64,000 nucleotides of DNA from Escherichia coli (lineage in GTDB: Bacteria > Pseudomonadota > Gammaproteobacteria > Enterobacterales > Enterobacteriaceae), in NCBI GenBank assembly GCA_902500125.1, contig GCA_902500125.1_4132.1; one strand, written 5' to 3'. Of this stretch, positions 23,387 through 63,762 are shown piece after piece (the first letter of the stretch is position 1; each line of letters opens with the position of its first letter). A program made the position numbers and the translations under genes. Under the pieces are notes generated by a model. That model did not search any database, was not told the origin of the DNA, and worked only from the letters and a program-made list of their open reading frames with translations.

Positions 23387-23394
23387 ATTCCCTC

Positions 23395-24634: not shown

Positions 24635-24641
24635 CTATATT

Positions 24642-25445: not shown

Positions 25446-25452
25446 ATAGTAT

Positions 25453-26642: not shown

Positions 26643-26649
26643 ATATCAA

Positions 26650-28347: not shown

Positions 28348-28348
28348 T

Positions 28349-28745: not shown

Positions 28746-28756
28746 AAGAGTACTAT

Positions 28757-29151: not shown

Positions 29152-29161
29152 AGAGAATACT

Positions 29162-29347: not shown

Positions 29348-29355
29348 GGTACTCT

Positions 29356-29535
29356 ATGCAAGAATTCTATATCTATAAACTTCAGCACAAAGATAGATAC
29401 AACTATAATAAATTCCAAAGGTACTACACAGTCGGGAACAAAAGAGATAAAAAACGATACTTTCTATCATGTACAGTAGAAGCACAAAACGAAAAGTACA
29501 CGTACAGAGAAGTACTGAAACTCATCTCTATGTAA
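29356..29535 (+). CDS. family A small protein (59 aa)
   Basis: Not in ORF track (<60 aa); MQEFYIYKLQ...EVLKLISM. Confidence 0.55.
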   Translation: MQEFYIYKLQHKDRYNYNKFQRYYTVGNKRDKKRYFLSCTVEAQNEKYTYREVLKLISM

Positions 29536-29543
29536 GGAATAAT

Positions 29544-29723
29544 ATGCAAGAATACTATATAGAACACATAAACATTAAAGACCGTTTCATGTACGACACC
29601 TTCGTGAAGTACTACAACCTGGCAACTAACAGTACTAAAAATATTAATCTCAATAGCTGCATTCATCACGCACTAACAAAAGATAATCCCTTCAGGGAAA
29701 TCCTCGCACTAGCATCTGTATAA
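29544..29723 (+). CDS. family A small protein (59 aa)
   Basis: ORF 29469 trimmed to ATG 29544 (AAGGA upstream); MQEYYIEHIN...EILALASV. Confidence 0.55.
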   Translation: MQEYYIEHINIKDRFMYDTFVKYYNLATNSTKNINLNSCIHHALTKDNPFREILALASV

Positions 29724-29733
29724 AGGAAACCAA

Positions 29734-30393
29734 ATGAAACTTAATGCACACAGCAAACAATACCTTAAGCACTTTAAGTACCTCAACAGTATTCAAGCAG
29801 AATCTATTACATCTGCATATACGTATCACCCTAATGTACTAAAGAAACGAAATAAAAAGAAAAAATCCAGAAATGTTCTCGTATCTAAGAACCTCAAATC
29901 GTACTTGAAGAAAAATAATATAGCTCTTGCTTTTATTAATATCTATCATACTGATTTAAAAGTATTGAGTACTAATACCAGCACAAAAGCACTAAAGAAT
30001 GCATCTATCTATATACACATGGATAATATCCCGTGCACTATAATTCTATCTTTCGGGAATGTATACTTCTTCGGGAATTGTAATAGCACCCATGATATCA
30101 GTACTGCACAATTCCAAATCGGCGATATGTACTGCATGGGTTCAGAAAAAATACACGATAACATGCACTTCTTCCAAAAGCAACGTACTAACGAAACTGA
30201 TACAGTACTGCAATTCCTCAAAGAACTACAAAACAAAGAATTAACACCAGAAGAAGAATTCATGTACAGTACTGTAATCGATAATCCAGAACTCTATAAA
30301 AACGCGTACAAACTAACAAAACATGTACAGGAACTTATCAGTACTGATAAGAAATTTCATAACCTCATTACGTATATTACAAACTATGTATAA
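29734..30393 (+). CDS. family C-related protein, long form with basic N-terminus (219 aa)
   Basis: AAGGA upstream; KKRNKKKKSRN N-region; TPEEEFMYSTVID resembles the EEYFQxSL motif; interrupts the family A array. Confidence 0.6.
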   Translation: MKLNAHSKQYLKHFKYLNSIQAESITSAYTYHPNVLKKRNKKKKSRNVLVSKNLKSYLKKNNIALAFINIYHTDLKVLSTNTSTKALKNASIYIHMDNIPCTIILSFGNVYFFGNCNSTHDISTAQFQIGDMYCMGSEKIHDNMHFFQKQRTNETDTVLQFLKELQNKELTPEEEFMYSTVIDNPELYKNAYKLTKHVQELISTDKKFHNLITYITNYV

Positions 30394-30571
30394 AGAATAC
30401 TACATAGAGAAACTCCCAATGTATCTCCAACACCTTCTACCAACAGAACCATTGGGTATAGAAAAAAACTACGAAAAAGACTACTTCATTCAGTGCACTA
30501 AATCCTCGATATATATTGAAGACTATAATCGAGTACTGTATCACATCCTTTTACTAATATATAGGTACTAA
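30386..30571 (+). CDS. family A small protein (61 aa)
   Basis: ORF 30323 trimmed to ATG 30386; MYKEYYIEKLP...ILLLIYRY. Confidence 0.6.
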   Translation: MYKEYYIEKLPMYLQHLLPTEPLGIEKNYEKDYFIQCTKSSIYIEDYNRVLYHILLLIYRY

Positions 30572-30572
30572 T

Positions 30573-30755
30573 ATGCACAAAGAATACTACACACAATTTC
30601 TCCCCAGCATTTTTGAACACTACGCCAGATACAAAGTCCCTATGGATAACGATTTGGCAGTACTGGGATTCAATAACTGCATAGAACGAAGTATAGAAAA
30701 TAGTAGTAGTTATGACCAGCTATATAACACTATCCTACTTATATTCAGGTACTAA
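30573..30755 (+). CDS. family A small protein (60 aa)
   Basis: TAAtATG junction; MHKEYYTQFLP...TILLIFRY. Confidence 0.65.
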   Translation: MHKEYYTQFLPSIFEHYARYKVPMDNDLAVLGFNNCIERSIENSSSYDQLYNTILLIFRY

Positions 30756-30756
30756 T

Positions 30757-30945
30757 ATGCATAAAGAATACTACACAAAATATTTCCCAATGTACCTCAG
30801 TACTAATCTATTAGATAAACCTCGCGGTATCAATGCACAAAACGATAAAGTGTACTTTACTATGTGCACTAAAGCATGTATACTAGATTTTGACAGCTAT
30901 CATCGAGTACTGTATCATACCCTGTACCTAGCTTTCGTATTCTAA
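30757..30945 (+). CDS. family A small protein (62 aa)
   Basis: ORF 30712 trimmed to ATG 30757 (TAAtATG); MHKEYYTKYFP... Confidence 0.65.
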   Translation: MHKEYYTKYFPMYLSTNLLDKPRGINAQNDKVYFTMCTKACILDFDSYHRVLYHTLYLAFVF

Positions 30946-30954
30946 AAGAACAAT

Positions 30955-31140
30955 ATGCATAAAGAATTCTACTTAAGCCATCTCGATCTAAACTCCCAAA
31001 TGCTTATACCACTAATCCCAATAGATATCAAGGATAAGAAAAATACCGAACAATTCATTTACCATACACAGTGTGCGATCACCCCAAATTACATTCCATA
31101 TGAATTGTACTACATTATCGCCCTAATATATAGGTACTAA
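30955..31140 (+). CDS. family A small protein (61 aa)
   Basis: MHKEFYLSHLD...IIALIYRY. Confidence 0.65.
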   Translation: MHKEFYLSHLDLNSQMLIPLIPIDIKDKKNTEQFIYHTQCAITPNYIPYELYYIIALIYRY

Positions 31141-31141
31141 T

Positions 31142-31327
31142 ATGCATAGAGAATACTACACACAATTTGTTAAAGGGAACTACAAACATGCCGTACCCAG
31201 AACCCCTTTAAATTCTCATGACCCAAGTACTATATTCTTGTTTAATGACGCAATACGTACAGTACTCAATACTAAAGATGAACAAGTGCAGTACGTATTC
31301 TTACTATTACTTATATACAGACACTAA
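31142..31327 (+). CDS. family A small protein (61 aa)
   Basis: TAAtATG; MHREYYTQFVK...LLLLIYRH. Confidence 0.65.
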   Translation: MHREYYTQFVKGNYKHAVPRTPLNSHDPSTIFLFNDAIRTVLNTKDEQVQYVFLLLLIYRH

Positions 31328-31332
31328 CTAAT

Positions 31333-31542
31333 ATGAATAAAGAACATAAAGAATACTACTCCAAACACCTCAGCCCCTCAGAACAAATGTTTCTAAGGAC
31401 TACTCCACCTTTAAGTACTAATACATTTTTCGGCAGAGTATGCTACAATAATTGTATTCAAATGACTTTAAACGCAAACGAAGATGGTAACAGTACTAAC
31501 CTGTACTCAGGTATCATAGGTATACTATTCCTGTATGAATAA
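31333..31542 (+). CDS. family A small protein (69 aa)
   Basis: MNKEHKEYYSKHLS...IGILFLYE. Confidence 0.65.
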   Translation: MNKEHKEYYSKHLSPSEQMFLRTTPPLSTNTFFGRVCYNNCIQMTLNANEDGNSTNLYSGIIGILFLYE

Positions 31543-31723
31543 TTACAAAGACTTCTATTTGAATACACTACCTACTGTACTTTCTCTAAGTGCTCAATGT
31601 AAAATCCCGCTGGATAATGCTTACGCCAGATATAGCTATTCCATAACTGTTAATCGATGTATAGAGAATCATTGCAGTACTAACCAGTACTATAACATAA
31701 TCCTACTTATATTCAGGTACTAA
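31535..31723 (+). CDS. family A small protein (62 aa)
   Basis: 8-nt overlap; MNNYKDFYLNTLP...IILLIFRY. Confidence 0.65.
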   Translation: MNNYKDFYLNTLPTVLSLSAQCKIPLDNAYARYSYSITVNRCIENHCSTNQYYNIILLIFRY

Positions 31724-31724
31724 T

Positions 31725-31907
31725 ATGAATAAAGAACATAAAGAATTCTATATACGAAAACTAACATTCGTCCCCGTAAGAATATATAAAGAATGCGACC
31801 CAAGATTATACCTATGGCACTTCAATGAGTGCATAAAAGATTCTATATACCATAAGAACTATAAAGAACAATTGTGCTCAGTACTAACACTAGTACTATC
31901 ATATTAA
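31725..31907 (+). CDS. family A small protein (60 aa)
   Basis: TAAtATG; MNKEHKEFYIRKLT...VLTLVLSY. Confidence 0.65.
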   Translation: MNKEHKEFYIRKLTFVPVRIYKECDPRLYLWHFNECIKDSIYHKNYKEQLCSVLTLVLSY

Positions 31908-31922
31908 TTAATAGAGAATACT

Positions 31923-32114
31923 ATGTATAAAAACTTCTATATAAGTAAACTAAAAGAAAATGAACAAGTATGGATTAGATCTATAATTCCACTGGCATTT
32001 AATAGATATGCATTTAACAGATGTACCGAGATTGCTATAGACCCTTATAATATTAAAGAGAATGTACAGTATAATCAGTACTACTATATCTTAATGCTTA
32101 TATATAGAAAGTAA
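31923..32114 (+). CDS. family A small protein (63 aa)
   Basis: AGAGAA upstream; MYKNFYISKLK...ILMLIYRK; last member. Confidence 0.65.
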   Translation: MYKNFYISKLKENEQVWIRSIIPLAFNRYAFNRCTEIAIDPYNIKENVQYNQYYYILMLIYRK

Positions 32115-40509: not shown

Positions 40510-40542
40510 AGATTTTATCAAGACAACTAAGAGGAAATTAAA

Positions 40543-40887
40543 ATGGCTAATATCAACACTATCGCAAAACAAAATATCAACCTGTCTTCTGTTGAAGTTG
40601 TACATATTGCCGCTCGGCGTTGGTTCCAGGCTTCATATGGTAACACTTATTTCTCTTTAAGTGTAGACGTAGAAATTGATGGTAATTTTATTGAAGTAGT
40701 AAACGTGCCGTTCCAATATGGATACGGGGATCACTTTGACACTGTAGCAATGGAAGAATTTAGCAAGGTTATTAATATGGAAGATAAAGAGTTTTTACGC
40801 GGTTCTTATCTTTCCCGTTTTTGCCGTGACAATAATATCACTGTTTACAGTTCGGTAACTGATGTTAAACGCAAAAAAGATCTTTAA
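40543..40887 (+). CDS. hypothetical protein (114 aa), paralog of 46523..46846
   Basis: Shared NTY..S, F.YGYG and C-terminal DVKRKKD(L/M). Confidence 0.7.
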   Translation: MANINTIAKQNINLSSVEVVHIAARRWFQASYGNTYFSLSVDVEIDGNFIEVVNVPFQYGYGDHFDTVAMEEFSKVINMEDKEFLRGSYLSRFCRDNNITVYSSVTDVKRKKDL

Positions 40888-40967
40888 TTAGCTTTACTTT
40901 ATGCAGATACTTTGATATAGTGTCTGCATAGGGGAAAGAAATTAAATTAACTTAAGAGGATCGTATA

Positions 40968-45835: not shown

Positions 45836-45848
45836 AAATAATTGAAAA

Positions 45849-45930
45849 AGGGATTGACTCCGGTCAGTCCCTTTGCTATTATATACGCATAGAAACAAAT
45901 TAGCCCACCGGGTGCATAAATGTATCTATT
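45849..45930 (+). promoter_or_regulatory. composite cassette: terminator hairpin carrying -35, plus U element core
   Basis: AGGGATTGAC-tccg-GTCAGTCCCT; TTGACT 45854, TATTAT 45877; core GCCCACCGGGTGC 45903-45915; TGTATCTATT 45921-45930; Chi 45935-45942 follows. Confidence 0.55.
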
Positions 45931-47398: not shown

Positions 47399-47653
47399 AT
47401 GATTAAGGTTCAACTATATAAAGATAACATCTTACGGGTACACTATAAAGCACCGAAGAGAATCATCACAAAGGCCGTACAGCTTGCTAATGAGTTTATT
47501 AATGGTAACCTATTACCAAGGAAGTTAAGCAACGGGAAACTGCGTGTAATCGACGTGGACACTAACAACAGGATAGTAATCGAGAACACAGGAAAAATAA
47601 ACCTTTATGAGCATCAACAATACAATAAGAAAATAAAACTAATATCACGTTGA
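47399..47653 (+). CDS. hypothetical protein (84 aa)
   Basis: ORF track; AGGA upstream. Confidence 0.6.
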   Translation: MIKVQLYKDNILRVHYKAPKRIITKAVQLANEFINGNLLPRKLSNGKLRVIDVDTNNRIVIENTGKINLYEHQQYNKKIKLISR

Positions 47654-48842: not shown

Positions 48843-48855
48843 AAAAGATTAAAAA

Positions 48856-48942
48856 AGGGATTGACTCCGGTCAGTCCCTTTGCTATTATATATCCATTGA
48901 GAGATAACTCACTGACCCATAGGGTGCGGAAGTGTATCTATT
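48856..48942 (+). promoter_or_regulatory. composite cassette: terminator hairpin carrying -35, plus U element core
   Basis: TTGACT 48861, TATTAT 48884; core CCCATAGGGTGC 48916-48927; TGTATCTATT 48933-48942. Confidence 0.55.
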
Positions 48943-51592: not shown

Positions 51593-51608
51593 CAAAAAAG
51601 AATAAAAA

Positions 51609-51687
51609 AGGGATTGACTCCGGTCAGTCCCTTTGCTATTATATACGCATAGACAAAAACTAGCCCACAGGGTGCATAGGTGTATCC
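51609..51687 (+). promoter_or_regulatory. composite cassette: terminator hairpin carrying -35, plus U element core
   Basis: TTGACT 51614, TATTAT 51637; core GCCCACAGGGTGC 51663-51675; TGTATCC 51681; Chi 51722-51729 follows. Confidence 0.55.
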
Positions 51688-52728: not shown

Positions 52729-52938
52729 ATGTTCTATACAGTATACAGCGTTCTAGGCACTATTGCAGGCGTACATGATAACGTCGATAGTGCTATGCGT
52801 ACAGTACTGCAACAGGTTCCACTAAAGCCTAAGACCATTAAGCAGATGACAGCACGACTAACCAGGGCGACGGCTGGCGTGGAAGTATGGCAGGACTATG
52901 GGGATACACAGATAATCGTAAGCGTAACGAAGGATTAA
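52729..52938 (+). CDS. hypothetical protein (69 aa)
   Basis: ORF track; AGGAGG SD; last gene of the GC-richer block. Confidence 0.65.
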   Translation: MFYTVYSVLGTIAGVHDNVDSAMRTVLQQVPLKPKTIKQMTARLTRATAGVEVWQDYGDTQIIVSVTKD

Positions 52939-53030: not shown

Positions 53031-53129
53031 ATGAATAAAAAGGGATTGGACTATGGCAAAATGCGTAGGGGGCTTAACTGCGGGTAACCTTAGCGACTTC
53101 GATAAAGGGGTATTACTAATAAAATGTTA

Positions 53130-53157
53130 TTGACTTTTTATACGAATCGTATATTAT
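53130..53157 (+). promoter_or_regulatory. sigma70-like promoter for the family B array
   Basis: TTGACT 53130-53135, 16 nt, TATTAT 53152-53157. Confidence 0.5.
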
Positions 53158-53187: not shown

Positions 53188-53385
53188 ATGCGTATTTTAA
53201 CTCAAGCAGAACATCACGAAAGACTTATCAATAACATGGCATATATCCTACATATGTCACATATCCGTGGTATTGCATATAAGCGTGAATTGGTTATGGC
53301 ACTATTCATTGGAACTAACTTTCAGGAAAGGTATGTCAAGGATTGGATTTCATATTTAATTGAAGATATAACGGGTAAACTATGA
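53188..53385 (+). CDS. family B small protein (65 aa)
   Basis: GGAG SD; motif FIGTNFQERYVKDWISYLIEDI. Confidence 0.65.
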   Translation: MRILTQAEHHERLINNMAYILHMSHIRGIAYKRELVMALFIGTNFQERYVKDWISYLIEDITGKL

Positions 53386-53590
53386 AAATTATCACACAAT
53401 TTCAACTATATAATCTTATGATCGAATATAGAAAGAATATATATATATACCAGATGAGTTATCTAGGGATGAAAAAAAGTTTATTCTATCGGAGTGGTGG
53501 ATGATGGCTGGACTGGGAACCAACTTCCAAGAAAGTTTTGTTAATGATTGGATTTTACATTTAATAAAAGATATAAAGAGTAAACAATGA
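53382..53590 (+). pseudogene. family B member disrupted at an (AT)7 run
   Basis: ATG 53382 (ATGA-coupled) gives MKIITQFQLYNLMIEYRKNIYIY. The conserved C-half (..SEWWMMAGLGTNFQESFVNDWILHLIKDI) is in another frame. The switch lies in ATATATATATATAT 53436-53449. Confidence 0.55.
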
Positions 53591-53796
53591 AAACTATAAC
53601 ACGAACCCAATCATTAGGTCTTATCTTGAAATACATGGACTTAATGTTGGATATCAGCAAAGACCTTCCTAAAACTGAAATCCAAGTTGCAAGAGCAGAG
53701 ATCCGCATGTTGGCTGTACTGAACACAAACCATCAGGAAGATTATGTTGAAGAATGGATTCGATTTTTAATAGAAGATATAAAGAGTAAATTATGA
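53587..53796 (+). CDS. family B small protein (69 aa)
   Basis: ATGA overlap; VLNTNHQEDYVEEWIRFLIEDI. Confidence 0.65.
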   Translation: MKTITRTQSLGLILKYMDLMLDISKDLPKTEIQVARAEIRMLAVLNTNHQEDYVEEWIRFLIEDIKSKL

Positions 53797-54008
53797 TTAT
53801 TATAGAAAACTCATATCAATATACTGAACGCATCGCTGCCAGACAACTTGAAATCCTCATAATATACGAAGAGACTTCTGATTTAAACTTAGCCGAGGTA
53901 TTGGAAAATGATATACTATTGGGTGCATTCTTAGGAACAGACTATCAGAAGTATTATGAGGAAAAGTATTTGTCATCTCTTGAGAAATATATCAGGAGCA
54001 AATTATGA
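53793..54008 (+). CDS. family B small protein (71 aa)
   Basis: ATGA overlap; FLGTDYQKYYEEKYL. Confidence 0.65.
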   Translation: MIIIENSYQYTERIAARQLEILIIYEETSDLNLAEVLENDILLGAFLGTDYQKYYEEKYLSSLEKYIRSKL

Positions 54009-54217
54009 TTTTTTTAACACCAGAAGAATATAAGAAACGTTTCAATTCCGCACAGGGTGAAATCTTACTTATATACCTTTCAAATGCAGACCTTAACTTA
54101 TCAAGGGTATTAGAAAAAGATTTACTTATGGGTGCATTCCTTGATACAGACTTTCAGGTGTATTATGTAGGGGAATACTTAATTGCACTTCAGAATTATA
54201 TCAGGAGTAAACTATGA
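54005..54217 (+). CDS. family B small protein (70 aa)
   Basis: ATGA overlap; FLDTDFQVYYVGEYL. Confidence 0.65.
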   Translation: MIFLTPEEYKKRFNSAQGEILLIYLSNADLNLSRVLEKDLLMGAFLDTDFQVYYVGEYLIALQNYIRSKL

Positions 54218-54441
54218 AACATTTAAGTAATTCCGAGAAGAATAAAATTATCATTGCTGCAATAAACAAATATTTTACACTTCCTCACAAAGAAGGTTTA
54301 TGTATAAGAGAACACAGGATAAACACCACCGATATACGCATGATGGCTGTACTGGGGACGAACTTCCAGGAAGAGTATGTTATTGCACACATAGTTGCAC
54401 TCAAGAATTACATTATGGACAAATGTAATGAACATCATTAA
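54214..54441 (+). CDS. family B small protein (75 aa)
   Basis: ATGA overlap; VLGTNFQEEYVIAHI. Confidence 0.65.
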   Translation: MKHLSNSEKNKIIIAAINKYFTLPHKEGLCIREHRINTTDIRMMAVLGTNFQEEYVIAHIVALKNYIMDKCNEHH

Positions 54442-54652
54442 TAACTTTGAATACGAGGCCCGTGCTAAGAGTGCCAGAAAAAAAGAGAACACCATTTACT
54501 TCACTATGATGTACTTACAATGGACTGAAATTGAAGAAAAGGTTGCTGAAGTATGGATGTTGGAATTCATGGGGACGCAGTATCAGAATAGGTTTGCGGG
54601 TGAGTATATCAATGTTCTTATGAAACAAATAGAAAGAAAGGAAAAGAACTAA
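54428..54652 (+). CDS. family B small protein (74 aa)
   Basis: ORF 54395 trimmed to ATG 54428; FMGTQYQNRFAGEYI. Confidence 0.6.
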   Translation: MNIINNFEYEARAKSARKKENTIYFTMMYLQWTEIEEKVAEVWMLEFMGTQYQNRFAGEYINVLMKQIERKEKN

Positions 54653-54810
54653 TGGTTTTCATTAACATATCTGACCAACTCGATACTAAACTAGAAGTCG
54701 AGCAGAGTGAGGGATGGATGTTGTACTTTCTTGGAACTTCTCATCAGAATTTTTATATCCATGAACACATAGTTGCACTCACAAATCTAATAAGGGATAA
54801 ATGTAAATGA
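54652..54810 (+). CDS. family B small protein, short (52 aa)
   Basis: Not in ORF track; TAATG junction; FLGTSHQNFYIHEHI. Confidence 0.55.
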   Translation: MVFINISDQLDTKLEVEQSEGWMLYFLGTSHQNFYIHEHIVALTNLIRDKCK

Positions 54811-55064
54811 AACACTTGACGAACGATGAATATTCACTTAGAATTCGAAAGCTCACCCCAGAAGCAAGAGTAATCTACGATGACGATGCACTTTCATGGA
54901 ACGAGATGAAAGTTAAAGTTCATGAGCTATGGTTGCTGTACTTTGTGGGAACCCAATATCAAGAGAAATATTGTACCGATTATCTTGAACAACTAATGGA
55001 TCTTATACAGATAAAACTAAATGAACGAATTGTGGAAAAATATGAAAACTTTATCAAGCACTGA
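54807..55064 (+). CDS. family B small protein (85 aa)
   Basis: ATGA overlap; FVGTQYQEKYCTDYL. Confidence 0.65.
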   Translation: MKHLTNDEYSLRIRKLTPEARVIYDDDALSWNEMKVKVHELWLLYFVGTQYQEKYCTDYLEQLMDLIQIKLNERIVEKYENFIKH

Positions 55065-55293
55065 GTATCAAACTGCCCTCTTCTCCCTTCTAAACACCCT
55101 CCGCACGAACAATAAACTTTATAATTCCCGTGAAGCTGATATCGTCAACGCTGATGTATATCTTAATAAATTCATAGGGACTAACTATCAAGAACTGTTC
55201 ACTCTACGATATATCGCTGCATTGAGAAACGAAATATCAGATAAAACCCGTCAAGCCAGAAGAGAATGGAATAAACAATGCGACAAAGACTAA
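55042..55293 (+). CDS. family B small protein (83 aa)
   Basis: ORF 55021 trimmed to ATG 55042 (either is possible); FIGTNYQELFTLRYI. Confidence 0.55.
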   Translation: MKTLSSTEYQTALFSLLNTLRTNNKLYNSREADIVNADVYLNKFIGTNYQELFTLRYIAALRNEISDKTRQARREWNKQCDKD

Positions 55294-55514
55294 ATCACAA
55301 AATGTATTGTAAACTATTGCAGACACTGGCACAGAAACACTATGACACTGTATCTGAAATATTACCCTATGATATCATGCGTTTAATTCATAGTGAGGCA
55401 GAGATGCTTGTACTGATGACAGGCACTGATAAAAAAGCAATTGCCAAATCAATAGATATGTTCATCGAAGCACAATGTCAACACATTAGAACCGAGATAT
55501 GGAGACGAGAATGA
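55278..55514 (+). CDS. family B-related small protein, divergent (78 aa)
   Basis: Position and size fit the array; motif degraded (LMTGTDKKAIAKSI). Confidence 0.55.
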   Translation: MRQRLNHKMYCKLLQTLAQKHYDTVSEILPYDIMRLIHSEAEMLVLMTGTDKKAIAKSIDMFIEAQCQHIRTEIWRRE

Positions 55515-55726
55515 TAACACTAAATGAGTTTCAGTATCATTGGAGGTTACAAACTATCAAATCAAAAGTGTATAGTATTGTGTTAAACAAATCTATTGCA
55601 CAAGAGGACAAATGTGTTATAATAGCTGAAATGAAGTTGGGTGCTTTCGTAGGGACAAACTATCAAAACATCTACACTGACGTATTGTTAAGTGCCTTAC
55701 GTAACAAGGTGGTATCCAAAATATGA
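55511..55726 (+). CDS. family B small protein (71 aa)
   Basis: ATG 55511 is 6 nt after GGAG and ATGA-coupled (ORF track 55499); FVGTNYQNIYTDVLL. Confidence 0.6.
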   Translation: MITLNEFQYHWRLQTIKSKVYSIVLNKSIAQEDKCVIIAEMKLGAFVGTNYQNIYTDVLLSALRNKVVSKI

Positions 55727-55941
55727 GAAATTTACAAGGCTTTGAATACATCAGACTCCTGAAAACATGCACCAGCAGAAGGAAAATCTTATCAAGCGAT
55801 AAGAGCATCCAAGCTAACCTTAAGCACGCACTAGTAACTGAACTCTATGTAGGTGCACTCTTAGGCACAAACTATCAACAAATGTATGTGGATCTATGGA
55901 TTGACGCTCTACAGAAAGAGGTTAAAAGTAAATGCAAATGA
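55723..55941 (+). CDS. family B small protein (72 aa)
   Basis: ATGA overlap; LLGTNYQQMYVDLWI. Confidence 0.65.
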   Translation: MRNLQGFEYIRLLKTCTSRRKILSSDKSIQANLKHALVTELYVGALLGTNYQQMYVDLWIDALQKEVKSKCK

Positions 55942-56150
55942 TTAATTTAAGTAAAGATGAATATTATGAACGTCTTGCAAAAACTTATCCAGCACGTAAG
56001 GCCGTTTATGATAGTCACATTATTGAACGCTCAAAGAAGTTGATTGTAGTAAATGAGATTAAGATGCTTTCAGTCTTAGGAACAAACTATCAAGAGAATG
56101 CTGTACTGTTGTTAATTGATGCCCTCCAGAGAGAGATACAAAGTAAATGA
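55932..56150 (+). CDS. family B small protein (72 aa)
   Basis: ATGCAAATGA junction (alternative ATG 55938); VLGTNYQENAVLLLI. Confidence 0.6.
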   Translation: MQMINLSKDEYYERLAKTYPARKAVYDSHIIERSKKLIVVNEIKMLSVLGTNYQENAVLLLIDALQREIQSK

Positions 56151-56395
56151 TTCATTTATCTTACCATGATTATCAAAAACGTTTAAATGCATCAAGGGAT
56201 ATAAGGATTCAAATCTTCAATAACAAAAAATTGAAACCTGACACCAGAAGAATCAAAATGATAGAAGCAGAGTTATGCAACTTCCTGGGGACGAACTATC
56301 AGGCAGGTAAGGTAAAAAACTATCTTAGAGAACTAATGATTTGTATCGAAAATAAATGTGAGGTTGATGAACATGCAAATGATCAATTTAAGTAA
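56147..56395 (+). CDS. family B small protein (82 aa)
   Basis: ATGA overlap; FLGTNYQAGKVKNYL. Confidence 0.65.
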   Translation: MIHLSYHDYQKRLNASRDIRIQIFNNKKLKPDTRRIKMIEAELCNFLGTNYQAGKVKNYLRELMICIENKCEVDEHANDQFK

Positions 56396-56636
56396 AGATG
56401 AATATACCGAGCGTATGACAAAAATTACGCACAAACGTAATACAATCTATCACAACCCAGAAATTCAACACAGTAAGAAAATGATTATGATGCGTGAGTT
56501 AAAGATGGGTGTATTCTTGGGAACAAACTATCAAGAGCCAGAAGTAAATCGATTAATTGCTGAGTTACTATTGGAAATCAAAGGTAAGCTGTACTTTCAT
56601 CAAATGACCCAGCCACTGAGGTGTACTGATCGATGA
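56373..56636 (+). CDS. family B small protein (87 aa)
   Basis: ORF 56358 trimmed to ATG 56373 (MQMINLSKDEY, as in 55932); FLGTNYQEPEVNRLI. Confidence 0.6.
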   Translation: MQMINLSKDEYTERMTKITHKRNTIYHNPEIQHSKKMIMMRELKMGVFLGTNYQEPEVNRLIAELLLEIKGKLYFHQMTQPLRCTDR

Positions 56637-56884
56637 ATGCGATGAATATTGTGAATAACATCAGATTAGCAGAAAGATTTGATAGAATTGGGGAAGCACT
56701 GAGAAGATACGATAAAGAATATGGTCATTTGAGCTTTTCTATAGAAAAGAGATATGAACTTGAAGCAGAGTTTAAAATGCAGAGTCTCTTAGGCACACAG
56801 TATCAAAACCAATATATTCAAACTTGGATTGATTGTTTAATCCAGACAATTTACGTAAGAAACATTAAATGCAAAATGAAATGA
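56633..56884 (+). CDS. family B small protein (83 aa)
   Basis: ATGA overlap; LLGTQYQNQYIQTWI. Confidence 0.65.
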   Translation: MNAMNIVNNIRLAERFDRIGEALRRYDKEYGHLSFSIEKRYELEAEFKMQSLLGTQYQNQYIQTWIDCLIQTIYVRNIKCKMK

Positions 56885-57129
56885 TATACTTAACCTATAA
56901 TGAATACGTCGAGAGATTAGTTCGTGCCAAGAGATATACCAATAAACGTCCAATTGACCTAAACCAAACCCCAGCAGAAAGGAGTGCAGAAGTATTATTC
57001 CAATCACTACCATATCTTCTGGGAACTGATAGACAAGAGGAATATGTTGCACGTATGATTAGATATCTTAAAATCACTATTAAGGAAAAAGTAAATGCAA
57101 ATGCAAATGAAATACTTAACAGACGATGA
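56869..57129 (+). CDS. family B small protein (86 aa)
   Basis: LLGTDRQEEYVARMI; alternative ATG 56881. Confidence 0.6.
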   Translation: MQNEMIYLTYNEYVERLVRAKRYTNKRPIDLNQTPAERSAEVLFQSLPYLLGTDRQEEYVARMIRYLKITIKEKVNANANEILNRR

Positions 57130-57352
57130 GTTAAAAGAACGACTAATTAAATCCAGAAAACTTACAAATCAACTTCCAAACGACACAAACAAGTCACATG
57201 CCGAAAGGAGTGCAGAAGTTTTATACATTCAACTCATGTACTTTCTTGGTACTGACAGACAAGAGTATTACATTGAAAGTATGCTTCGATATCTTAAATT
57301 CTCTATAAAGGAAAAGATACATGCTCAAGAATTTAAAAATCCTAACAGTTAA
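57095..57352 (+). CDS. family B small protein (85 aa)
   Basis: FLGTDRQEYYIESML; close paralog of 56869. Confidence 0.6.
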   Translation: MQMQMKYLTDDELKERLIKSRKLTNQLPNDTNKSHAERSAEVLYIQLMYFLGTDRQEYYIESMLRYLKFSIKEKIHAQEFKNPNS

Positions 57353-57563
57353 TGAATATCATAAGATTGTAATGAAAACTAATAGTGAAATTTCTAAAAA
57401 ATCAAACCCAAAGTACATACTGGAACACACATTCGAAGAACGTCAATTAGCTCTAGTTGAAGCAAAACTTCTTGCACTCCTAGGGACTAACTATCAAGAA
57501 GAATACATCAGAAAACTAATATACCTTTTAACTAAACATATAAGAAAAAGAAAAAATGCATGA
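57321..57563 (+). CDS. family B small protein (80 aa)
   Basis: AAGGA SD; LLGTNYQEEYIRKLI. Confidence 0.65.
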   Translation: MLKNLKILTVNEYHKIVMKTNSEISKKSNPKYILEHTFEERQLALVEAKLLALLGTNYQEEYIRKLIYLLTKHIRKRKNA

Positions 57564-57790
57564 AACACTTGACAGATGATGAACATGGGCTTATAGTAAT
57601 GGATGTAATCAACATCGAATACAAAAAGTTGATACGCTACCGTTGTTATGAAGATAAGCAACTCGTTCTAGCAGAACAGAAGTTGTTTCGACTCTTAAAC
57701 ACAAACTTCCAAGCACAATACGAAGAATCGTATATGTACCTTTTGGCGAGGAAAGCAAAAAGAGATTATGAAAATTTTAAGCAAAGGTGA
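57560..57790 (+). CDS. family B small protein (76 aa)
   Basis: ATGA overlap; LLNTNFQAQYEESYM. Confidence 0.65.
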   Translation: MKHLTDDEHGLIVMDVINIEYKKLIRYRCYEDKQLVLAEQKLFRLLNTNFQAQYEESYMYLLARKAKRDYENFKQR

Positions 57791-57983
57791 TTCAGTAATA
57801 TTACTTATAGAGAGTTCAAGTAAATTCTTAAACATAACACTGTCTGATATAGATGAAGATGACAAAGAAGTACTGAGAGCAGATTTAAGAGTACTGTTAC
57901 ATATCGGAACAAACCTACAAGAAGAATATGTAGAGTGCTACATCAATGAACTTAAAGAATTAGTACTGAGAAAATGCAAATGA
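57768..57983 (+). CDS. family B small protein (71 aa)
   Basis: HIGTNLQEEYVECYI. Confidence 0.6.
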   Translation: MKILSKGDSVILLIESSSKFLNITLSDIDEDDKEVLRADLRVLLHIGTNLQEEYVECYINELKELVLRKCK

Positions 57984-58201
57984 AAATCATTACCGATGCA
58001 GAATACCTAACAATCATAAATGGACTGTTTTTGAAGCTCTTCGTCATTAACACATCAGATATACCAGATATGGATAAAATTATTAAGAGAAATGAAGTCT
58101 ATGTTCTAGCTACCCTTGGAACGAACTATCAAGAACACGACATTAAAGATTATATTAATACACTTAAACGAGCGATTGAACTAAAATGCCAAAACCACTA
58201 G
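57974..58201 (+). CDS. family B small protein (75 aa)
   Basis: ATGCAAATGA junction; TLGTNYQEHDIKDYI. Confidence 0.6.
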   Translation: MQMKIITDAEYLTIINGLFLKLFVINTSDIPDMDKIIKRNEVYVLATLGTNYQEHDIKDYINTLKRAIELKCQNH

Positions 58202-58401
58202 GAACAGCAGAATACATTGAACTAATGGGATTACACTTCTCATCCTTTCAGAAACTTATGCGAGAATCAAAGAATGATTTAGAATATACCATCAGAGGTT
58301 CCGATTTAAGAATGCTTCTCACCCTAGACACAGATTCCCAAGAGCGATTTGTCAATGAGCATATTAGAGCACTTTTAATGGAAATTCAAAGTAAACTATG
58401 A
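58186..58401 (+). CDS. family B small protein (71 aa)
   Basis: TLDTDSQERFVNEHI. Confidence 0.6.
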   Translation: MPKPLGTAEYIELMGLHFSSFQKLMRESKNDLEYTIRGSDLRMLLTLDTDSQERFVNEHIRALLMEIQSKL

Positions 58402-58613
58402 AGGTAATATCAAATCAAGAGTACTTGGCACTATTCAGGAAGAATAATCACAAATATATGGCACTTGATTCAAGAACTGATATAAGTGAACTTGAAAAAA
58501 ATCTTTTGCGTTCAGATATGATAGTACTGACACTCTTAGGAACACAGCATCAAGAGAGAACTGTTAATTCACACATAGGGATTCTAATGCAGATAGTACA
58601 GGAAAAGATATGA
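58398..58613 (+). CDS. family B small protein (71 aa)
   Basis: ATGA overlap; LLGTQHQERTVNSHI. Confidence 0.65.
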   Translation: MKVISNQEYLALFRKNNHKYMALDSRTDISELEKNLLRSDMIVLTLLGTQHQERTVNSHIGILMQIVQEKI

Positions 58614-58831
58614 GAATCATAACACAACAAGATATTCTTAAGTTCACAAGGGTTCATGCATCTGAATTTGATGCTATATTATCAAAAAGTTACAACAACC
58701 CTTATACAGAAGATGTACACTACAATGAATTATGGGTGTATATACTTTTAGGTACAGATCATCAAGAGCAAGCAGTACAGAAGTATTTGTTAGCTTTACG
58801 TGATGCTACTGCTAATGGAGTACGTGTTTAA
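58610..58831 (+). CDS. family B small protein (73 aa)
   Basis: ATGA overlap; LLGTDHQEQAVQKYL. Confidence 0.65.
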   Translation: MRIITQQDILKFTRVHASEFDAILSKSYNNPYTEDVHYNELWVYILLGTDHQEQAVQKYLLALRDATANGVRV

Positions 58832-58832
58832 T

Positions 58833-59075
58833 ATGAAAGTACTGACAGAACTAGAAATGTATCATAGATTTAATAAGTACTATCATTTACTTAAGCCTAT
58901 ACAGAGGATTAAATGTCCATTTGAAGAGAAACAGGTATTAATTTATGAGCATAAGTTATTTGTATCATTAGGTACAGATCAACAAGAGTACTATTTGACG
59001 TTGTACTTGATTACATTAATAGATTTAATTTACTATAAAACCAAACAAGCTAATAAAGAGAAATATGAAAACTAA
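58833..59075 (+). CDS. family B small protein (80 aa)
   Basis: ORF 58800 trimmed to ATG 58833, 1 nt after previous stop; SLGTDQQEYYLTLYL. Confidence 0.6.
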   Translation: MKVLTELEMYHRFNKYYHLLKPIQRIKCPFEEKQVLIYEHKLFVSLGTDQQEYYLTLYLITLIDLIYYKTKQANKEKYEN

Positions 59076-59409
59076 TATACAACTCAAGGTATATAAATCA
59101 TTTGAACATACATATATCAAAAGTAGTCTATGTAGAGATGTAATGGATTACAAGGGTAAGCCATTCACAATTACTTATGATTCTTATGTTGATGATTTAT
59201 ATATATCATTTGTTAATTACGAAAATAAAATATACAAGCACGTTGATATTAAAGATTTAAGTACTTTATCACCAGAGGAATACTTCCAGGAATCATTAGT
59301 ATGGGATTTAGAGTTCCCTATGCCATTAGTACATAAGATGATAGTACTAATGAAAGAATCTAAACAGGAGCCTAATAGTGCTTATGAAGAACACATTATT
59401 GAGTATTAA
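59065..59409 (+). CDS. family C protein, short form (114 aa)
   Basis: Motif LSPEEYFQESLVWDLEFPMPLVHKM. Confidence 0.65.
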   Translation: MKTNIQLKVYKSFEHTYIKSSLCRDVMDYKGKPFTITYDSYVDDLYISFVNYENKIYKHVDIKDLSTLSPEEYFQESLVWDLEFPMPLVHKMIVLMKESKQEPNSAYEEHIIEY

Positions 59410-59779
59410 GAGTACTGATAATATTAAGAGTTATACAAGCTCAAGTACTGTGACAATCGAAGTGAATTCTATTAATGCTGGTAATGCAGTAGATAAGTTC
59501 TTTATTGCTCAAGGGTACAGGAAAGATATTCATCAATATTGTTCAGTATATGGGGAGTACAATAGTACTGAAGATATAATTTATTGGTCAACACATCAAG
59601 ATTATCTAACTAAAATTGGAGTCCCAGATGTTAGTACTTTATCTGAAGAAGAATACTTTCAGTACAGCTTAATATGTGATGTACCTATACCTTTAGGGTT
59701 AATCAAGGGTATACAGGAAGAGGTTCATAAGCTTAAATCCATGAGTAAAGGTACTTTCATTAGAACAGTGCAATACTAG
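59378..59779 (+). CDS. family C protein (133 aa)
   Basis: GTG 59378 is 9 nt after AGGAG (alternative ATG 59384); LSEEEYFQYSLICDVPIPLGLIKG. Confidence 0.6.
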   Translation: MLMKNTLLSIKSTDNIKSYTSSSTVTIEVNSINAGNAVDKFFIAQGYRKDIHQYCSVYGEYNSTEDIIYWSTHQDYLTKIGVPDVSTLSEEEYFQYSLICDVPIPLGLIKGIQEEVHKLKSMSKGTFIRTVQY

Positions 59780-59780
59780 C

Positions 59781-59809
59781 TTGACAGTACTTTTCATTAC
59801 TGATATAGT
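59781..59809 (+). promoter_or_regulatory. sigma70-like promoter
   Basis: TTGACA 59781, 17 nt, TATAGT 59804. Confidence 0.5.
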
Positions 59810-59838
59810 ACACTAACGTTAATCATAGGGTAAAAATT

Positions 59839-60084
59839 ATGTTAAATTTTTTAAATTTCCTTATCGTTTTGTGTATTGTTCTTGGGATTGCACCATTTGT
59901 ATTGTATTTCATGGATTCAGATGAAATGCAGAAGATGAATTGTACAAGGACAGGACAGAGTAGAGAAGAGACGATTCTTATGCCTGTTACGGTTATTGTT
60001 AACAACATGCCCATTACAAACATGGTCCCTACCCTAACGACAACGTACCAGTACTCTTGTGCTGACGGAGAGAGGTGGAGATGA
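59839..60084 (+). CDS. membrane protein (81 aa)
   Basis: ORF track; N-terminal TM MLNFLNFLIVLCIVLGIAPFVLYF. Confidence 0.6.
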   Translation: MLNFLNFLIVLCIVLGIAPFVLYFMDSDEMQKMNCTRTGQSREETILMPVTVIVNNMPITNMVPTLTTTYQYSCADGERWR

Positions 60085-60401
60085 AATTTAATATAGCAAA
60101 AACATCGAGTATATGTATTTTTGGTTATGCAGAAGAGTTAGGTGATATTGACATTCTTTTGTACAAAAAGGATGGTGTTATGCATTTCAAGTACCAGGAT
60201 GAAGAGGCAGACAATTATCTTTTACCTAATTTAGTACAAATGCAGGAAGAGGAATTATTCCAGTACAGCTTAGTATACGACATTGATATTTGCACGATGC
60301 CAGTACTAATTAGTATTCAAAAAGTGATGCTCGATATGTATGATAAGCTAATACAAGGTACATCAGGGAGAATCATTGAAATCGATATACAAGACAATTA
60401 A
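60075..60401 (+). CDS. family C protein, short form (108 aa)
   Basis: GGTGGAG SD; QEEELFQYSLVYDIDICTMPVLISIQK. Confidence 0.65.
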   Translation: MEMKFNIAKTSSICIFGYAEELGDIDILLYKKDGVMHFKYQDEEADNYLLPNLVQMQEEELFQYSLVYDIDICTMPVLISIQKVMLDMYDKLIQGTSGRIIEIDIQDN

Positions 60402-60594
60402 TCAAGAATGGAAGACCCAAAAGTACAGGGAATTCAACAGGAATTTTACAAAAGATGCATTGAATTTAAAAACAACAGAGTTTGATATGTTTATTTTTCT
60501 TGGAACACGTTCACAAGAACAATTTGTTCATTATTATATAAATTCGTTGCGAACGGAGATAGTATGCAAAACACAGGGTATTATAAAAAGGTAA
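60376..60594 (+). CDS. family B-like small protein (72 aa)
   Basis: TTG start 5 nt after GGGAG (no in-frame ATG until codon 46); FLGTRSQEQFVHYYINSL. Confidence 0.5.
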   Translation: MKSIYKTINQEWKTQKYREFNRNFTKDALNLKTTEFDMFIFLGTRSQEQFVHYYINSLRTEIVCKTQGIIKR

Positions 60595-60830
60595 ACCAAT
60601 ATTTGTACGCTACAAAGTACAGGGATTTTTGTTTAAAGGGTGGTGATGAAGATTTTTCTTTGCGATTATCAGAATTTAATCTGTTATTTTATCTTGGTAC
60701 AAAAGAACAAGAAGAAATGGCACAGAAATTTATCAAGCACCTTTTACAAAAAATTAATATGCAAATTTTGATGCTTAAGTTACAGAATGAGATAAATGAA
60801 TATGAATCCAGAAATAGTACAGGATCTTAA
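60564..60830 (+). CDS. family B-like small protein (88 aa)
   Basis: GGAGAT SD; YLGTKEQEEMAQKFIKHL. Confidence 0.6.
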   Translation: MQNTGYYKKVNQYLYATKYRDFCLKGGDEDFSLRLSEFNLLFYLGTKEQEEMAQKFIKHLLQKINMQILMLKLQNEINEYESRNSTGS

Positions 60831-63252: not shown

Positions 63253-63737
63253 AGTTTAGTTTAGATGCTGCCTTTAAATTTGTTCACAAGATAGAAACAA
63301 TATACAGTACATTATGTGCAATACAATCAGTATCATCTGAGTTTGATGTTGGTGAAAAATATCAGGTATGGAATAATACATTTCTAAACAAAGAACGTTG
63401 CTCTACGGGGTTTAATATTTTAACATTTAATCCCAGCAATTGTTACCCAGAGAAGCATGAACGTTATCCGAATGACGACATGTGGTTTGATTACACAAAA
63501 GATGGTGATATGTCATCCCTTGTAGTTCCTGATGATTTTAATGCCGAAGATTTAACGAAAGAGTGGTGGTTTCAACAGAATTTAGTACACGATGATATTG
63601 ATTTATTTTTTTATGTAGTATTTAAAATGCTTTACCACAACAATATATTAAAAGATAGTGTGTTTTTTTCATGTCTATATATTGATGATTTGTACAATGA
63701 AATCCAAATCAACATGCCCAGAACGCCTGTATCGTAA
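63231..63737 (+). CDS. family C protein, long form (168 aa)
   Basis: GAGG SD; LTKEWWFQQNLVHDDIDLFFYVVFKMLYHNNIL. Confidence 0.65.
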   Translation: MQYMYDLEFSLDAAFKFVHKIETIYSTLCAIQSVSSEFDVGEKYQVWNNTFLNKERCSTGFNILTFNPSNCYPEKHERYPNDDMWFDYTKDGDMSSLVVPDDFNAEDLTKEWWFQQNLVHDDIDLFFYVVFKMLYHNNILKDSVFFSCLYIDDLYNEIQINMPRTPVS

Positions 63738-63762
63738 GATATGGGCTTTTTTCGTTTTGGTA

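Follow-up and report, generated by a model that had tools for sequence, protein, structure and literature searches.

A diversified array of small, predicted four-helix proteins beside the presumed terminal repeat of an Asteriusvirus jumbo coliphage

Introduction

Much of a jumbo phage genome consists of small early genes without an assigned function, and the reason for their accumulation is a standing question. The 64-kb stretch of DNA analyzed here (the window) belongs to a jumbo coliphage of the genus Asteriusvirus (PBECO4/121Q/G17 group) and raises this question for a single gene family: what are some 29 small paralogs, lined up one behind another, there to do? An earlier note on this DNA proposed that they form an undescribed accessory system. 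The array offers a tractable case, combining one confidently modelled fold, ~30 natural variants per genome and a defined promoter with two deeply different natural versions that lie next to near-identical flanks.

Results

The ORF list and a six-frame search with a profile of the members agree with the count of about 29 given in the earlier note, and identify 28 intact members and one split member, all on the + strand (Table 1). Twenty-seven consecutive slots, 26 of them intact and one broken, make up the main block (53188-59075), two further members lie at 60376-60830, and the profile found no other match better than E = 0.5 in the six-frame translation of the rest of the 64-kb window. Members are 52-88 aa long, typically about 70 aa, and together occupy 6.3 kb, or 9.9% of the window, which makes the array the largest paralog cluster there, much as had been estimated (about 10 percent). 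Not all members are intact, however, as had been implied: relative to the near-identical contigs L017 and L018, slot 2 has an (AT)n run that is longer by a single AT, and this addition causes a +2 frame shift in what is an intact gene of 68 aa in those contigs.

With starts set at the conserved M-x-x-L-(T/S) N-terminus, 4-nt ATGA overlaps account for only about half of the internal junctions (13/25) and not for most of them, the remaining 12 overlapping by 1-32 nt or leaving a gap of 1-5 nt; the supposedly conserved junction motif (A/G)GTAAA(C/T)TATGA is present just four times. A Shine-Dalgarno (SD)-like run lies ahead of 13 of the 28 starts (background 12.5%), and no convincing intrinsic terminator was found in the array interior. 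The main array thus has the layout by which we define an operon (same strand, stop/start overlap or gap of no more than 5 nt, no internal terminator), and from this layout it is predicted to be translationally coupled.

The promoter-like site that had been placed at 53130 does exist, and its -35 element and the SD sequence are conserved in G17, ph0011, 121Q, vB_Ec-M-J and contig L010, which carries the type II array described below. It is not the sole promoter, as had been supposed, because a second one, in the non-coding gap that precedes the last two members, is conserved in G17, PBECO4, 121Q, ph0011, vB_Ec-M-J, SD-15 and L010, which makes two transcription units probable. The first strong terminator-like hairpin downstream coincides with an annotated terminator of G17 and probably closes the early transcription unit(s).

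Upstream, the annotated end of the direct terminal repeat (DTR) of vB_Ec-M-J lies within a 23-nt block that occurs once in the window and is also kept in L010, despite the unrelated array there. The first position of the vB_Ec-M-J record corresponds to position 32398 of the window, so the equivalent DTR would extend over ~32398-53089, a placement based on this one annotated relative and on the PhageTerm results for Sharanji; the UE-S1 study reports 8.3 kb instead (PMC12805682), and headful packaging was assumed elsewhere (PMC5646251). The array starts 99 nt beyond this homology-inferred boundary, and its promoter about 40 bp beyond. Early expression is probable, and fits this position and the promoter and SD signals. 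A literature search found no Asteriusvirus transcriptome, and the virion proteome of phAPEC6 includes no array protein and none of the members' size (~8-10 kDa, an estimate), a class of small proteins that mass spectrometry easily misses.

The (F/L)LGT(N/D/Q)(Y/F/H)Q(E) core holds across the members, with the T of LGT in 28/28, Q in 27/28, G in 24/28 and a downstream L in 27/28, and is concentrated in their C-terminal half. The earlier note did not recognize this motif, and the family could indeed be tied to no known domain, to no named relative and to no specific fold: no family in Pfam, NCBIfam or PADLOC scored above its curated cut-off, the sub-threshold matches being of the chance type (PucR, 14.6 bits versus a cut-off of 33.5), and no relative was found in the PDB. 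All seven members tested match phrog_4148 (PHROGs v4, "unknown function") with E 7e-9 to 8e-23 over profile positions ~1-72 of 74, and member 3 also matches phrog_28039; in contrast to the locus as described here, the PHROG entry is without function, structure, context, array organization, fold or DTR-boundary position. Only 94 clusters among 1.84 billion protein representatives match the family, which is restricted to one phage lineage: the array was found in 36 of 36 Asteriusvirus records matched, and also in more distant metagenomic relatives.

The structure prediction called for earlier gave, for member 13 and with the paralog alignment alone as input to AlphaFold (AF2), a predicted compact four-helix domain (pLDDT 97.6, pTM 0.82) for which structure comparison returned no specific neighbor. 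Matches to helix-turn-helix or winged-helix folds were absent, and a small DNA-binding regulator of either kind was rejected on this structural ground. Conserved columns comprise core hydrophobics, two S/T-x-x-E/Q patterns, interpreted as helix caps, together with an E/K pair, while surface positions, as assigned from helical periodicity, vary among paralogs and cysteines are not conserved; the motif looks fold-stabilizing rather than catalytic.

The array genes evolve as coding genes under purifying selection. Pooled dN/dS was 0.33-0.41 when 22-27 ortholog pairs were compared with each of five genomes (124 pairs), selection was tightest at LGT (local pN/pS 0.14-0.18), and the classic arms-race signature is absent, because no protein region showed dN/dS > 1 between orthologs. 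The ORFs remain uninterrupted in both G17 and ph0011, and the other relatives of good quality have only a few copies that are partial or fused. Array content is not stable: copy number ranges from 20 to 31 across relatives, and alleles are mosaic. There are two deeply divergent array types, with about 39% identity between them. Arrays of type I contain 25 to 31 copies whose orthologs are ~42% to 100% identical, whereas those of type II (L010, L014, L016, L019 and L022) contain 20-21 members each, whose median identity to any member in the window is 38-41%, next to upstream DNA that is 94-97% identical. Orthologs are syntenic and individually conserved across isolates. Because ph0011 and L010 also vary downstream of the array, some of this variability may belong to the region as a whole rather than to the array. 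At the DNA level the array is not a tandem repeat: TRF detects no array repeat, and amino acid identity among paralogs has a mean of 28.7% and a maximum of 52%, on which grounds a recent genomic accordion was rejected. The diversity stems from old divergence together with allele or array replacement.

Table 1. Array members and neighboring features in the window
Feature	Position	Strand	Length	HMM E	Remarks
Conserved block at DTR right boundary	53080..53102		23 nt		GCGGGTAACC/TTAGCGACTTCGA; homology-inferred
Main sigma-70-type promoter	53130..53157	+			TTGACT-16-TATTAT, 10/12 match; SD GGAG 8 nt before first ATG
Member 1	53188..53385	+	65 aa	1.1e-18	FIGTNFQ motif
Member 2, split	53382..53589	+		0.013 and 6.8e-15	two frames: N-part 53382-53504, C-part 53502-53589
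Member 3	53587..53796	+	69 aa	8.4e-23	phrog_28039 and phrog_4148
Member 4	53793..54008	+	71 aa	6.2e-19	
Member 5	54005..54217	+	70 aa	9.1e-22	
Member 6	54214..54441	+	75 aa	3.3e-26	
Member 7	54428..54652	+	74 aa	2.1e-23	refined start ATG 54428; longest ORF from TTG 54395
Member 8	54652..54810	+	52 aa	2e-17	N-terminally short
Member 9	54807..55064	+	85 aa	4.8e-27	
Member 10	55042..55293	+	83 aa	2.4e-19	from ATG 55042; longest ORF from 55021
Member 11	55278..55514	+	78 aa	5.9e-17	divergent motif MTGTDKK
Member 12	55511..55726	+	71 aa	1.7e-23	
Member 13	55723..55941	+	72 aa	7e-25	phrog_4148 E 4.6e-21; protein modelled (AF2)
Member 14	55938..56150	+	70 aa	5e-24	phrog_4148
Member 15	56147..56395	+	82 aa	1.1e-24	
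Member 16	56379..56636	+	85 aa	8.8e-26	from ATG 56379
Member 17	56642..56884	+	80 aa	1.3e-19	
Member 18	56881..57129	+	82 aa	2.6e-22	
Member 19	57107..57352	+	81 aa	2.3e-23	
Member 20	57321..57563	+	80 aa	1.8e-21	phrog_4148
Member 21	57560..57790	+	76 aa	6.1e-17	
Member 22	57768..57983	+	71 aa	6.1e-21	
Member 23	57980..58201	+	73 aa	2.6e-25	phrog_4148
Member 24	58186..58401	+	71 aa	1.5e-20	
Member 25	58398..58613	+	71 aa	1.4e-22	phrog_4148
Member 26	58610..58831	+	73 aa	3.7e-21	
Member 27	58833..59075	+	80 aa	1.4e-21	from ATG 58833
Two phrog_13866-like paralogs	59065..59779	+			59065-59409 and 59378-59779; unrelated family, interrupting array
Second promoter, intergenic	59781..59809	+			TTGACA-17-TATAGT with TG; precedes last two members
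Protein with hydrophobic N-terminal segment	59839-60084	+	81 aa		ORF list
Third phrog_13866 paralog	60075-60401	+			profile match
Member 28	60376..60594	+	72 aa	2.7e-18	TTG start, GGGAG SD; phrog_4148 E 7e-9; unannotated in G17
Member 29	60564..60830	+	88 aa	1.1e-13	
Intrinsic-terminator-like hairpin	63725..63746	+			strong, first downstream; same site annotated terminator in G17

Discussion

We lean, with a confidence that falls slightly short of even, toward the array being a polycistronic battery of soluble small proteins that bind rather than catalyze, share one compact four-helix scaffold and have variable host targets. According to this proposal, host RNA polymerase would transcribe the array from the sigma-70-type promoter ~40 bp past the terminal-repeat boundary, the array probably being one of the earliest parts of the unique DNA to enter the cell, and ribosomes would move from ORF to ORF via the overlapping stop and start codons, so that all members would be co-produced. 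The conserved residues would hold the common scaffold together, while each paralog would present a different surface to a different strain-variable host target, most likely an anti-phage defence protein or another target of host takeover, and phages with different arrays would consequently cope with different hosts. The sharp difference in arrays between otherwise near-identical phages fits, but does not prove, a role in host interaction. Known anti-defence proteins are usually unrelated singletons rather than 30 copies of one scaffold, which counts against such a battery, as does the absence of dN/dS above 1. If the members are host-directed binders, the array would serve as an existing library in which to look for new phage-host interfaces and as a host-range marker for therapeutic Asteriusvirus phages. 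A more specific version, which we regard as somewhat unlikely, would make the array a repertoire of 20-31 single-scaffold inhibitors, each against a different host defence or factor, with exchange of whole arrays (type I for type II) and slot-wise allele replacement as a major determinant of host range in these jumbo phages, whose host range is broad; it would then be the largest single-family counter-defence locus known and would add a new small binding fold.

That the paralogs instead serve the phage's own programme, as small regulators, as nucleic-acid- or protein-binding adaptors, or as subunits of a hetero-oligomer made in equal amounts, seems unlikely to us, although stoichiometric complexes typically accompany translational coupling, many members are basic (median pI 8.4), and individual conservation of orthologs is what would be expected if each had a fixed partner. 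A hetero-oligomer might set the timing of the switch from early to middle genes or organize the 350-kb genome as it enters, and Iyer et al. (2021, PMC7824862) proposed that the Zn-ribbon family with ~35 copies in phage G comprises specific transcription factors or structural DNA-binding proteins. We give distinctly little credence to the array being a largely dispensable, ancient tandem duplication that is kept by a roomy capsid under weak, generic selection. This is the expansion ratchet of Hua et al., who read the arrays of 121Q and phage G as tandem-duplication expansion (PMC5646251), and it is in keeping with the range in copy number, the frameshifted member of the window and a dN/dS that is fairly relaxed. 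Yet dN/dS is well under 1 in every protein region, paralogs at 29% identity still keep their ORF, the fold-defining residues and the conserved promoter, and the array persists in all 36 matched Asteriusvirus records and in more distant metagenomic relatives, where neutral filler would be expected to decay. Were the array dispensable, it would speak for genome expansion by a capsid-size ratchet.

Bacterial polyimmunity loci and the colicin immunity proteins, which are small four-helix Im proteins, offer a comparison, since such proteins are sometimes arranged in tandem. The array could by analogy be an immunity-like repertoire in conflicts among phages and mobile elements, acting for example in superinfection exclusion or in neutralizing polymorphic toxins with one paralog per variant, which we consider improbable. 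Both cases involve small helical binders with a conserved and a variable part, and the tandem layout of diverged single-scaffold paralogs with a C-terminally concentrated motif, the hypervariability between near-identical genomes and the presence of a ParE-like toxin-domain gene in the adjoining DTR would all suit such a role. No cognate toxin genes are interleaved in the array, however, its proteins differ from Im7 in their pattern of helix lengths, and they show no similarity to PADLOC or Pfam immunity or antitoxin families or to Im7 itself (hhalign probability 0.1%); a colicin-type immunity protein was rejected on the latter result.

The proposal of an undescribed accessory system is supported in part, by the lack of a known domain, by the evolution of the genes as coding sequence and by the unstable array content. 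The locus is not wholly undescribed, for a single sentence in Hua et al. (2017), arguing for genome expansion, refers to a tandem array in 121Q (PMC5646251), a remark echoed in one sentence for phAPEC6 (PMC7247149). The array meant there is most probably the present locus, and genes 319-346 of 121Q hold 24-25 family members; these papers concern the same genus, neither define the family nor treat its structure, expression logic or comparison, and call "very similar" what we find to be ~29% identical. Presence in all 36 matched records argues against "accessory" in the sense of presence or absence, and nothing in the layout and comparisons analyzed here points to a "system" of interacting parts.

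One parallel is phage G, also a jumbo phage, in which one small domain of unassigned role occurs dozens of times, in a lineage-specific expansion of ~35 proteins (PMC7824862). That domain is a Zn ribbon, whereas the present one is predicted to be a metal-free four-helix domain, and host and phage lineage differ. Poxvirus genomic accordions are amplified counter-defence loci. A report on phage T6 describes segmental amplification of anti-defence loci (PMC13096335). In both, small virus genes are multiplied in tandem under pressure from host immunity, but accordions are recent, near-identical and unstable, while the present array is ancient, with 29% identity, no DNA repeat and syntenic orthologs. 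In SPO1 (gp37-60) and T5 (the pre-early genes), host-takeover modules lie in or near the terminal repeats. These modules and the early region of CBB (PMC5259590) likewise place many small ORFs of unknown function, with host-type promoters, at the genome end that enters first, but they consist of unrelated genes, usually with their own promoters, and so match the DTR of the window rather than the array, which is a single paralogous family in a coupled operon just outside the repeat. In the adjoining DTR, six perfect (12/12) sigma-70 promoters precede small ORFs, and comparable regions of the related phage CBB have been read as early host-takeover genes (PMC5259590). The gene with the ParE-like toxin domain is also located in this repeat.

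Organization of the array

Small plus-strand ORFs of family B, the LGT-motif paralogs of about 70 aa, are packed without a break over the main array, with two further members downstream. A profile built from the members themselves and run against the six-frame translation of the window recovered 28 intact members and one split between two frames; no other locus in any frame scored better than E = 0.5. Because this profile was derived from the same sequences, seven members were tested independently against PHROGs, and all seven matched phrog_4148, which has no assigned function (E 7e-9 to 8e-23), bearing out the earlier note's estimate of about 29 paralogs of one family. Its 27 consecutive genes are indeed 27 consecutive slots, but slot 2 is frameshifted. 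In the near-identical contigs L017 (GCA_902500055.1, CABVOI010000005.1, 353,697 bp; flank 99.0% identical in nucleotides, 27 of 29 members at least 90% identical to the window) and L018 this slot holds an intact 68-aa gene; the sole difference is one extra AT unit in the window, which could reflect slipped-strand variation or an assembly error.

In an alignment of the 28 intact members only the T of LGT is invariant, with near-invariant columns at Q (27/28), a downstream L (27/28) and G (24/28). Identity between paralogs averages 28.7% (maximum 52%) and does not fall with distance along the array (Spearman -0.05), and Tandem Repeats Finder detected no DNA-level repeat at the array, which together indicate that the duplications are old. 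Only three adjacent or near-adjacent pairs reach about 51% identity, a hint of later local duplications.

When starts were set at the conserved M-x-x-L-(T/S) N-terminus, ATGA overlaps were found at 13 of 25 internal junctions, the remainder lying between an overlap of 32 nt and a gap of 5 nt; the earlier claim that most junctions are ATGA or similar was thus not sustained, and the junction sequence described as conserved occurs only four times. SD-like runs stand ahead of 13 of the 28 starts, compared with 12.5% in the background. The genes that interrupt family B vary in number and order among relatives.

Features of the window (nucleotide positions)
Feature	Position	Strand	Remarks
Eight paralogs	18067-27816	-	mostly ~370-410 aa
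Family A, packed small genes	28144-32114	+	60-70 aa; just left of repeat start
Putative DTR equivalent	32398-53089		20.7 kb
Perfect 12/12 sigma-70 promoters	46099, 46439, 46869, 49292, 49783, 51309		within DTR equivalent
28-nt hairpins, identical	45847-45874, 48854-48881, 51607-51634		
ParE-like gene	47399-47653	+	84 aa; Pfam PF24732, E 4.6e-11
69-aa flanking gene	52729-52938		used to choose flank-matched contigs
Boundary block	53080-53102		23 nt
Promoter-like site, main array	53130-53157		conserved in relatives
Main array	53188-59075	+	27 slots
Slot 2	53382-53589	+	frameshifted; (AT)n run 53436-53449
Three phrog_13866 paralogs	within 59065-60401	+	second uncharacterised family interrupting family B; shared EEYFQ.SL..D...P motif
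81-aa protein	within 59065-60401	+	also interrupts family B; hydrophobic N-terminal segment
Second promoter	59781-59809		in 60-nt non-coding gap; conserved in relatives
Last two members	60376-60830	+	
Terminator-like hairpin	63725-63746		first strong one 3' of array; G17 has an annotated terminator at same place

The single promoter at 53130 proposed in the earlier note is matched by a conserved site, but the conservation of a second promoter in the non-coding gap makes it probable that the last two members belong to a second transcription unit. A consensus match at 57569, inside the array, is probably incidental, since its CAC-TTG-ACA corresponds to codons of the conserved H-L-T N-terminus.

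Position relative to the terminal repeat

The window matches Asteriusvirus jumbo coliphages (G17, Sharanji, PBECO4 and CRJP21 among them) at 93-95% identity. Of the 36 records that matched, all come from Escherichia or Salmonella phages, and none of the genes under the match has an annotation other than hypothetical. One relative, vB_Ec-M-J, has an annotated direct terminal repeat (DTR) of 21,525 bp, and its first array gene lies 99 nt past the DTR end. Position 1 of that record corresponds to window 32398, and its DTR end falls within the boundary block (GCGGGTAACCTTAGCGACTTCGA), which places the equivalent repeat in the window at about 20.7 kb, close to the 20,668 bp given for Sharanji (PMC11895373). 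The unique region then opens with the array as its first operon, and the internal position of the DTR homologue implies that the window spans a collapsed genome-end junction. Accounts of where these genomes physically end differ: the repeat of UE-S1 is given as 8.3 kb (PMC12805682), and headful packaging was assumed by Hua et al. (PMC5646251). The block occurs only once in the window and is kept even in a contig with an unrelated array and diverged intergenic DNA. Its possible role is as a terminase or repeat-boundary site.

The DTR equivalent consists of small ORFs with repeated intergenic cassettes of 70-100 nt between them, and holds six perfect sigma-70 promoters. Each of the three identical hairpins (AAAGGGATTGACTCCGGTCAGTCCCTTT) is followed by GCTATTAT and looks like a joint terminator-like stem and promoter with the -35 element within the stem. 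The gene with the ParE-like toxin domain in this region is present in some relatives and missing from others. Two weak family-B-like ORFs were also seen in vB_Ec-M-J at 40529-40916, about 20 kb 3' of its array start; the homologous site lies past the window end.

Protein family and predicted fold

Family B, whose motif the earlier note did not recognise, maps to no known domain: searches of Pfam, NCBIfam and PADLOC gave no above-threshold hit for any member, and the family profile found no sequence match in the PDB. When 1.84 billion cluster representatives were searched exhaustively with the profile, only 94 proteins matched, nearly all of 50-120 aa, with an LGTxxQ-type motif in every one whose sequence was read. 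All named relatives are annotated 'hypothetical protein', and those on long contigs come from contigs of about 350 kb. Two divergent metagenomic members, P0086 and P0076, had no tblastn match among cultured phages.

An AlphaFold2 model of one member, computed from an alignment of the 28 paralogs only (pLDDT 97.6, pTM 0.82), predicts with very high confidence a compact four-helix domain (residues 6-14, 17-25, 31-45 and 52-71) with a one-residue beta-bridge from residue 2 to the invariant T49. The earlier note had proposed testing for a helical hairpin or HTH; the model matches no HTH or winged-helix fold. Foldseek against the PDB gave a best E of 2.2, and the viral structure library matched only uncharacterised Asteriusvirus proteins. 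The conserved columns comprise the hydrophobic core and polar residues, including an E40/K70 pair; from sequence pattern and secondary structure we infer two helix N-capping boxes, (T/S/N)5-x-x-E8 and T49-x-x-Q52. With this pattern of conservation, widely varying charge (pI 4.4-9.8) and unconserved Cys and His, the motif looks fold-stabilising rather than catalytic. Membrane segments are absent from all members.

Neighbouring members are joined in natural in-frame fusions or chimeras in a metagenomic protein (P0095) and in SD-15_S21 (L007, 8127-8462), showing that junction mutations are able to merge adjacent paralogs. A model of the two-member fusion P0095 (AF2 pTM 0.51, second domain poorly modelled), a weak proxy for neighbour packing, showed no confident packing. 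Another protein, P0090 (269 aa), joins a member to an unrelated C-terminal part, whose RaK2/K64-1 homologues gave no clue to function.

Variation and selection

Copy number is not stable. Near-full-length members number 20-21 in type II metagenomic contigs, in which a deeply divergent array stands beside near-identical upstream DNA, 24-25 in 121Q, 27 in SD-15_S21, 28 plus one broken in the window, 29 in vB_Ec-M-J, 30 in ph0011 and 31 in both G17 and PBECO4. Window-like (type I) arrays are syntenic, with single slots gained or lost and positional orthologs from about 42% to 100% identical within a single genome pair. Ten contexts were flank-matched by a gene identical to the 69-aa flanking gene, and five of them carried type II arrays (L014, L016, L019, L020 and L022, the same Logan contig as L011); L010, a further type II contig, came via member P0088. 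L020, cut off by the end of its contig, was left out of identity scoring. For type II members of the five scored contigs (20-21 per contig in L010, L014, L016, L019 and L022), median identity to the best-matching window member is 38-41%. About 7 kb upstream of these arrays is 94-97% identical to the window in nucleotides, and immediately beyond the flanking gene's stop codon similarity is lost, except at the boundary block, promoter and SD. Sequence on the right side of the array likewise varies a fair amount, so some of the array plasticity is regional. In a more distant metagenomic relative, L008 (flanks 30-84% identical in protein), about 16 members are packed into an array behind a series of spaced small genes.

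Pooled dN/dS was 0.33-0.41 for reciprocal-best ortholog pairs linking the window with each of five relatives. Across 124 ortholog pairs placed on the family profile, pN/pS was 0.28-0.41 by region and 0.14-0.18 around LGT, indicating purifying selection in every part of the protein; a per-column search for positive selection between orthologs found none, and no segment exceeded 1. ORFs are fully intact in G17 and ph0011, with a few partial or fused copies in the other good-quality relatives compared; the many broken members of CMSTMSU, an UNVERIFIED record, were treated as a sequence-quality artefact. Together with the co-variation signal that enabled the AlphaFold fold, dN/dS and ORF integrity provide good evolutionary evidence that the members are translated. 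No protein of their size is listed in the phAPEC6 virion proteome (PMC7247149), which fits non-structural proteins, if weakly, since small proteins are easily missed.

Discussion

The array is real and clearly non-random, and its protein family is uncharacterised and without detectable relatives; as a lineage-specific jumbo-phage expansion of small, probably early genes it is of a known kind. Host-takeover modules are known in or near terminal repeats, and amplified counter-defence loci are also known. Jumbo phages can expand small domains, as in the lineage-specific Zn ribbons of phage G (PMC7824862). Conceptually the array lies between these three, but unlike all of them it is an ancient, diverged and, by prediction, translationally coupled family on a single fold. 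The earlier note called it a strong candidate for an undescribed system, but it was not wholly undescribed: Hua et al. (PMC5646251) mentioned in passing a tandem array in 121Q, a point repeated in the phAPEC6 paper (PMC7247149) and a 2026 review. Most probably it is this locus that was meant, even though we count 24-25 members there and find them not very similar to each other. In the literature searched, no paper defines the family, its fold, its repeat-boundary position, the two array types or a function.

The best-supported reading, which we hold tentatively, is that the array encodes a battery of small binding proteins sharing a single scaffold, which would be made early and co-translated and would act on variable host targets such as defence systems or host-takeover targets. 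What the data show is the anatomy of the array, its fold, its coding status, its hypervariability and its confinement to this lineage; early timing, a binding activity and the kind of target are inferred. A simple arms-race picture is counted against by the lack of positive selection between orthologs, by the long-term preservation of each paralog and by the usual form of known anti-defence proteins, which are mostly unrelated singletons. Self-directed regulators or a hetero-oligomeric assembly would agree with the predicted translational coupling and with the large number of basic members, but are unlikely because no DNA-binding fold is seen and replacement of the whole array is tolerated.

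Mostly dispensable duplicated filler, in line with the genome-expansion argument of Hua et al. (PMC5646251), seems more doubtful still, given that the genes are under purifying selection and universally retained. A set of immunity-like proteins for use in conflicts between mobile elements is improbable, as no toxin genes were found in the array; an approximate Im7 query showed no sequence-level similarity to the family. Should the battery of binding proteins prove to be a counter-defence repertoire, the array would be considerably more notable.

Other paralog sets in the window

Family A comprises several small families with a common HKEFY...P...LI..Y pattern; remote homology to family B was ruled out (hhalign probability 1%). 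The eight larger minus-strand paralogs are, judging from size and copy number, probably counterparts of the ~41-kDa 'DNA condensation proteins' detected in phAPEC6 virions.
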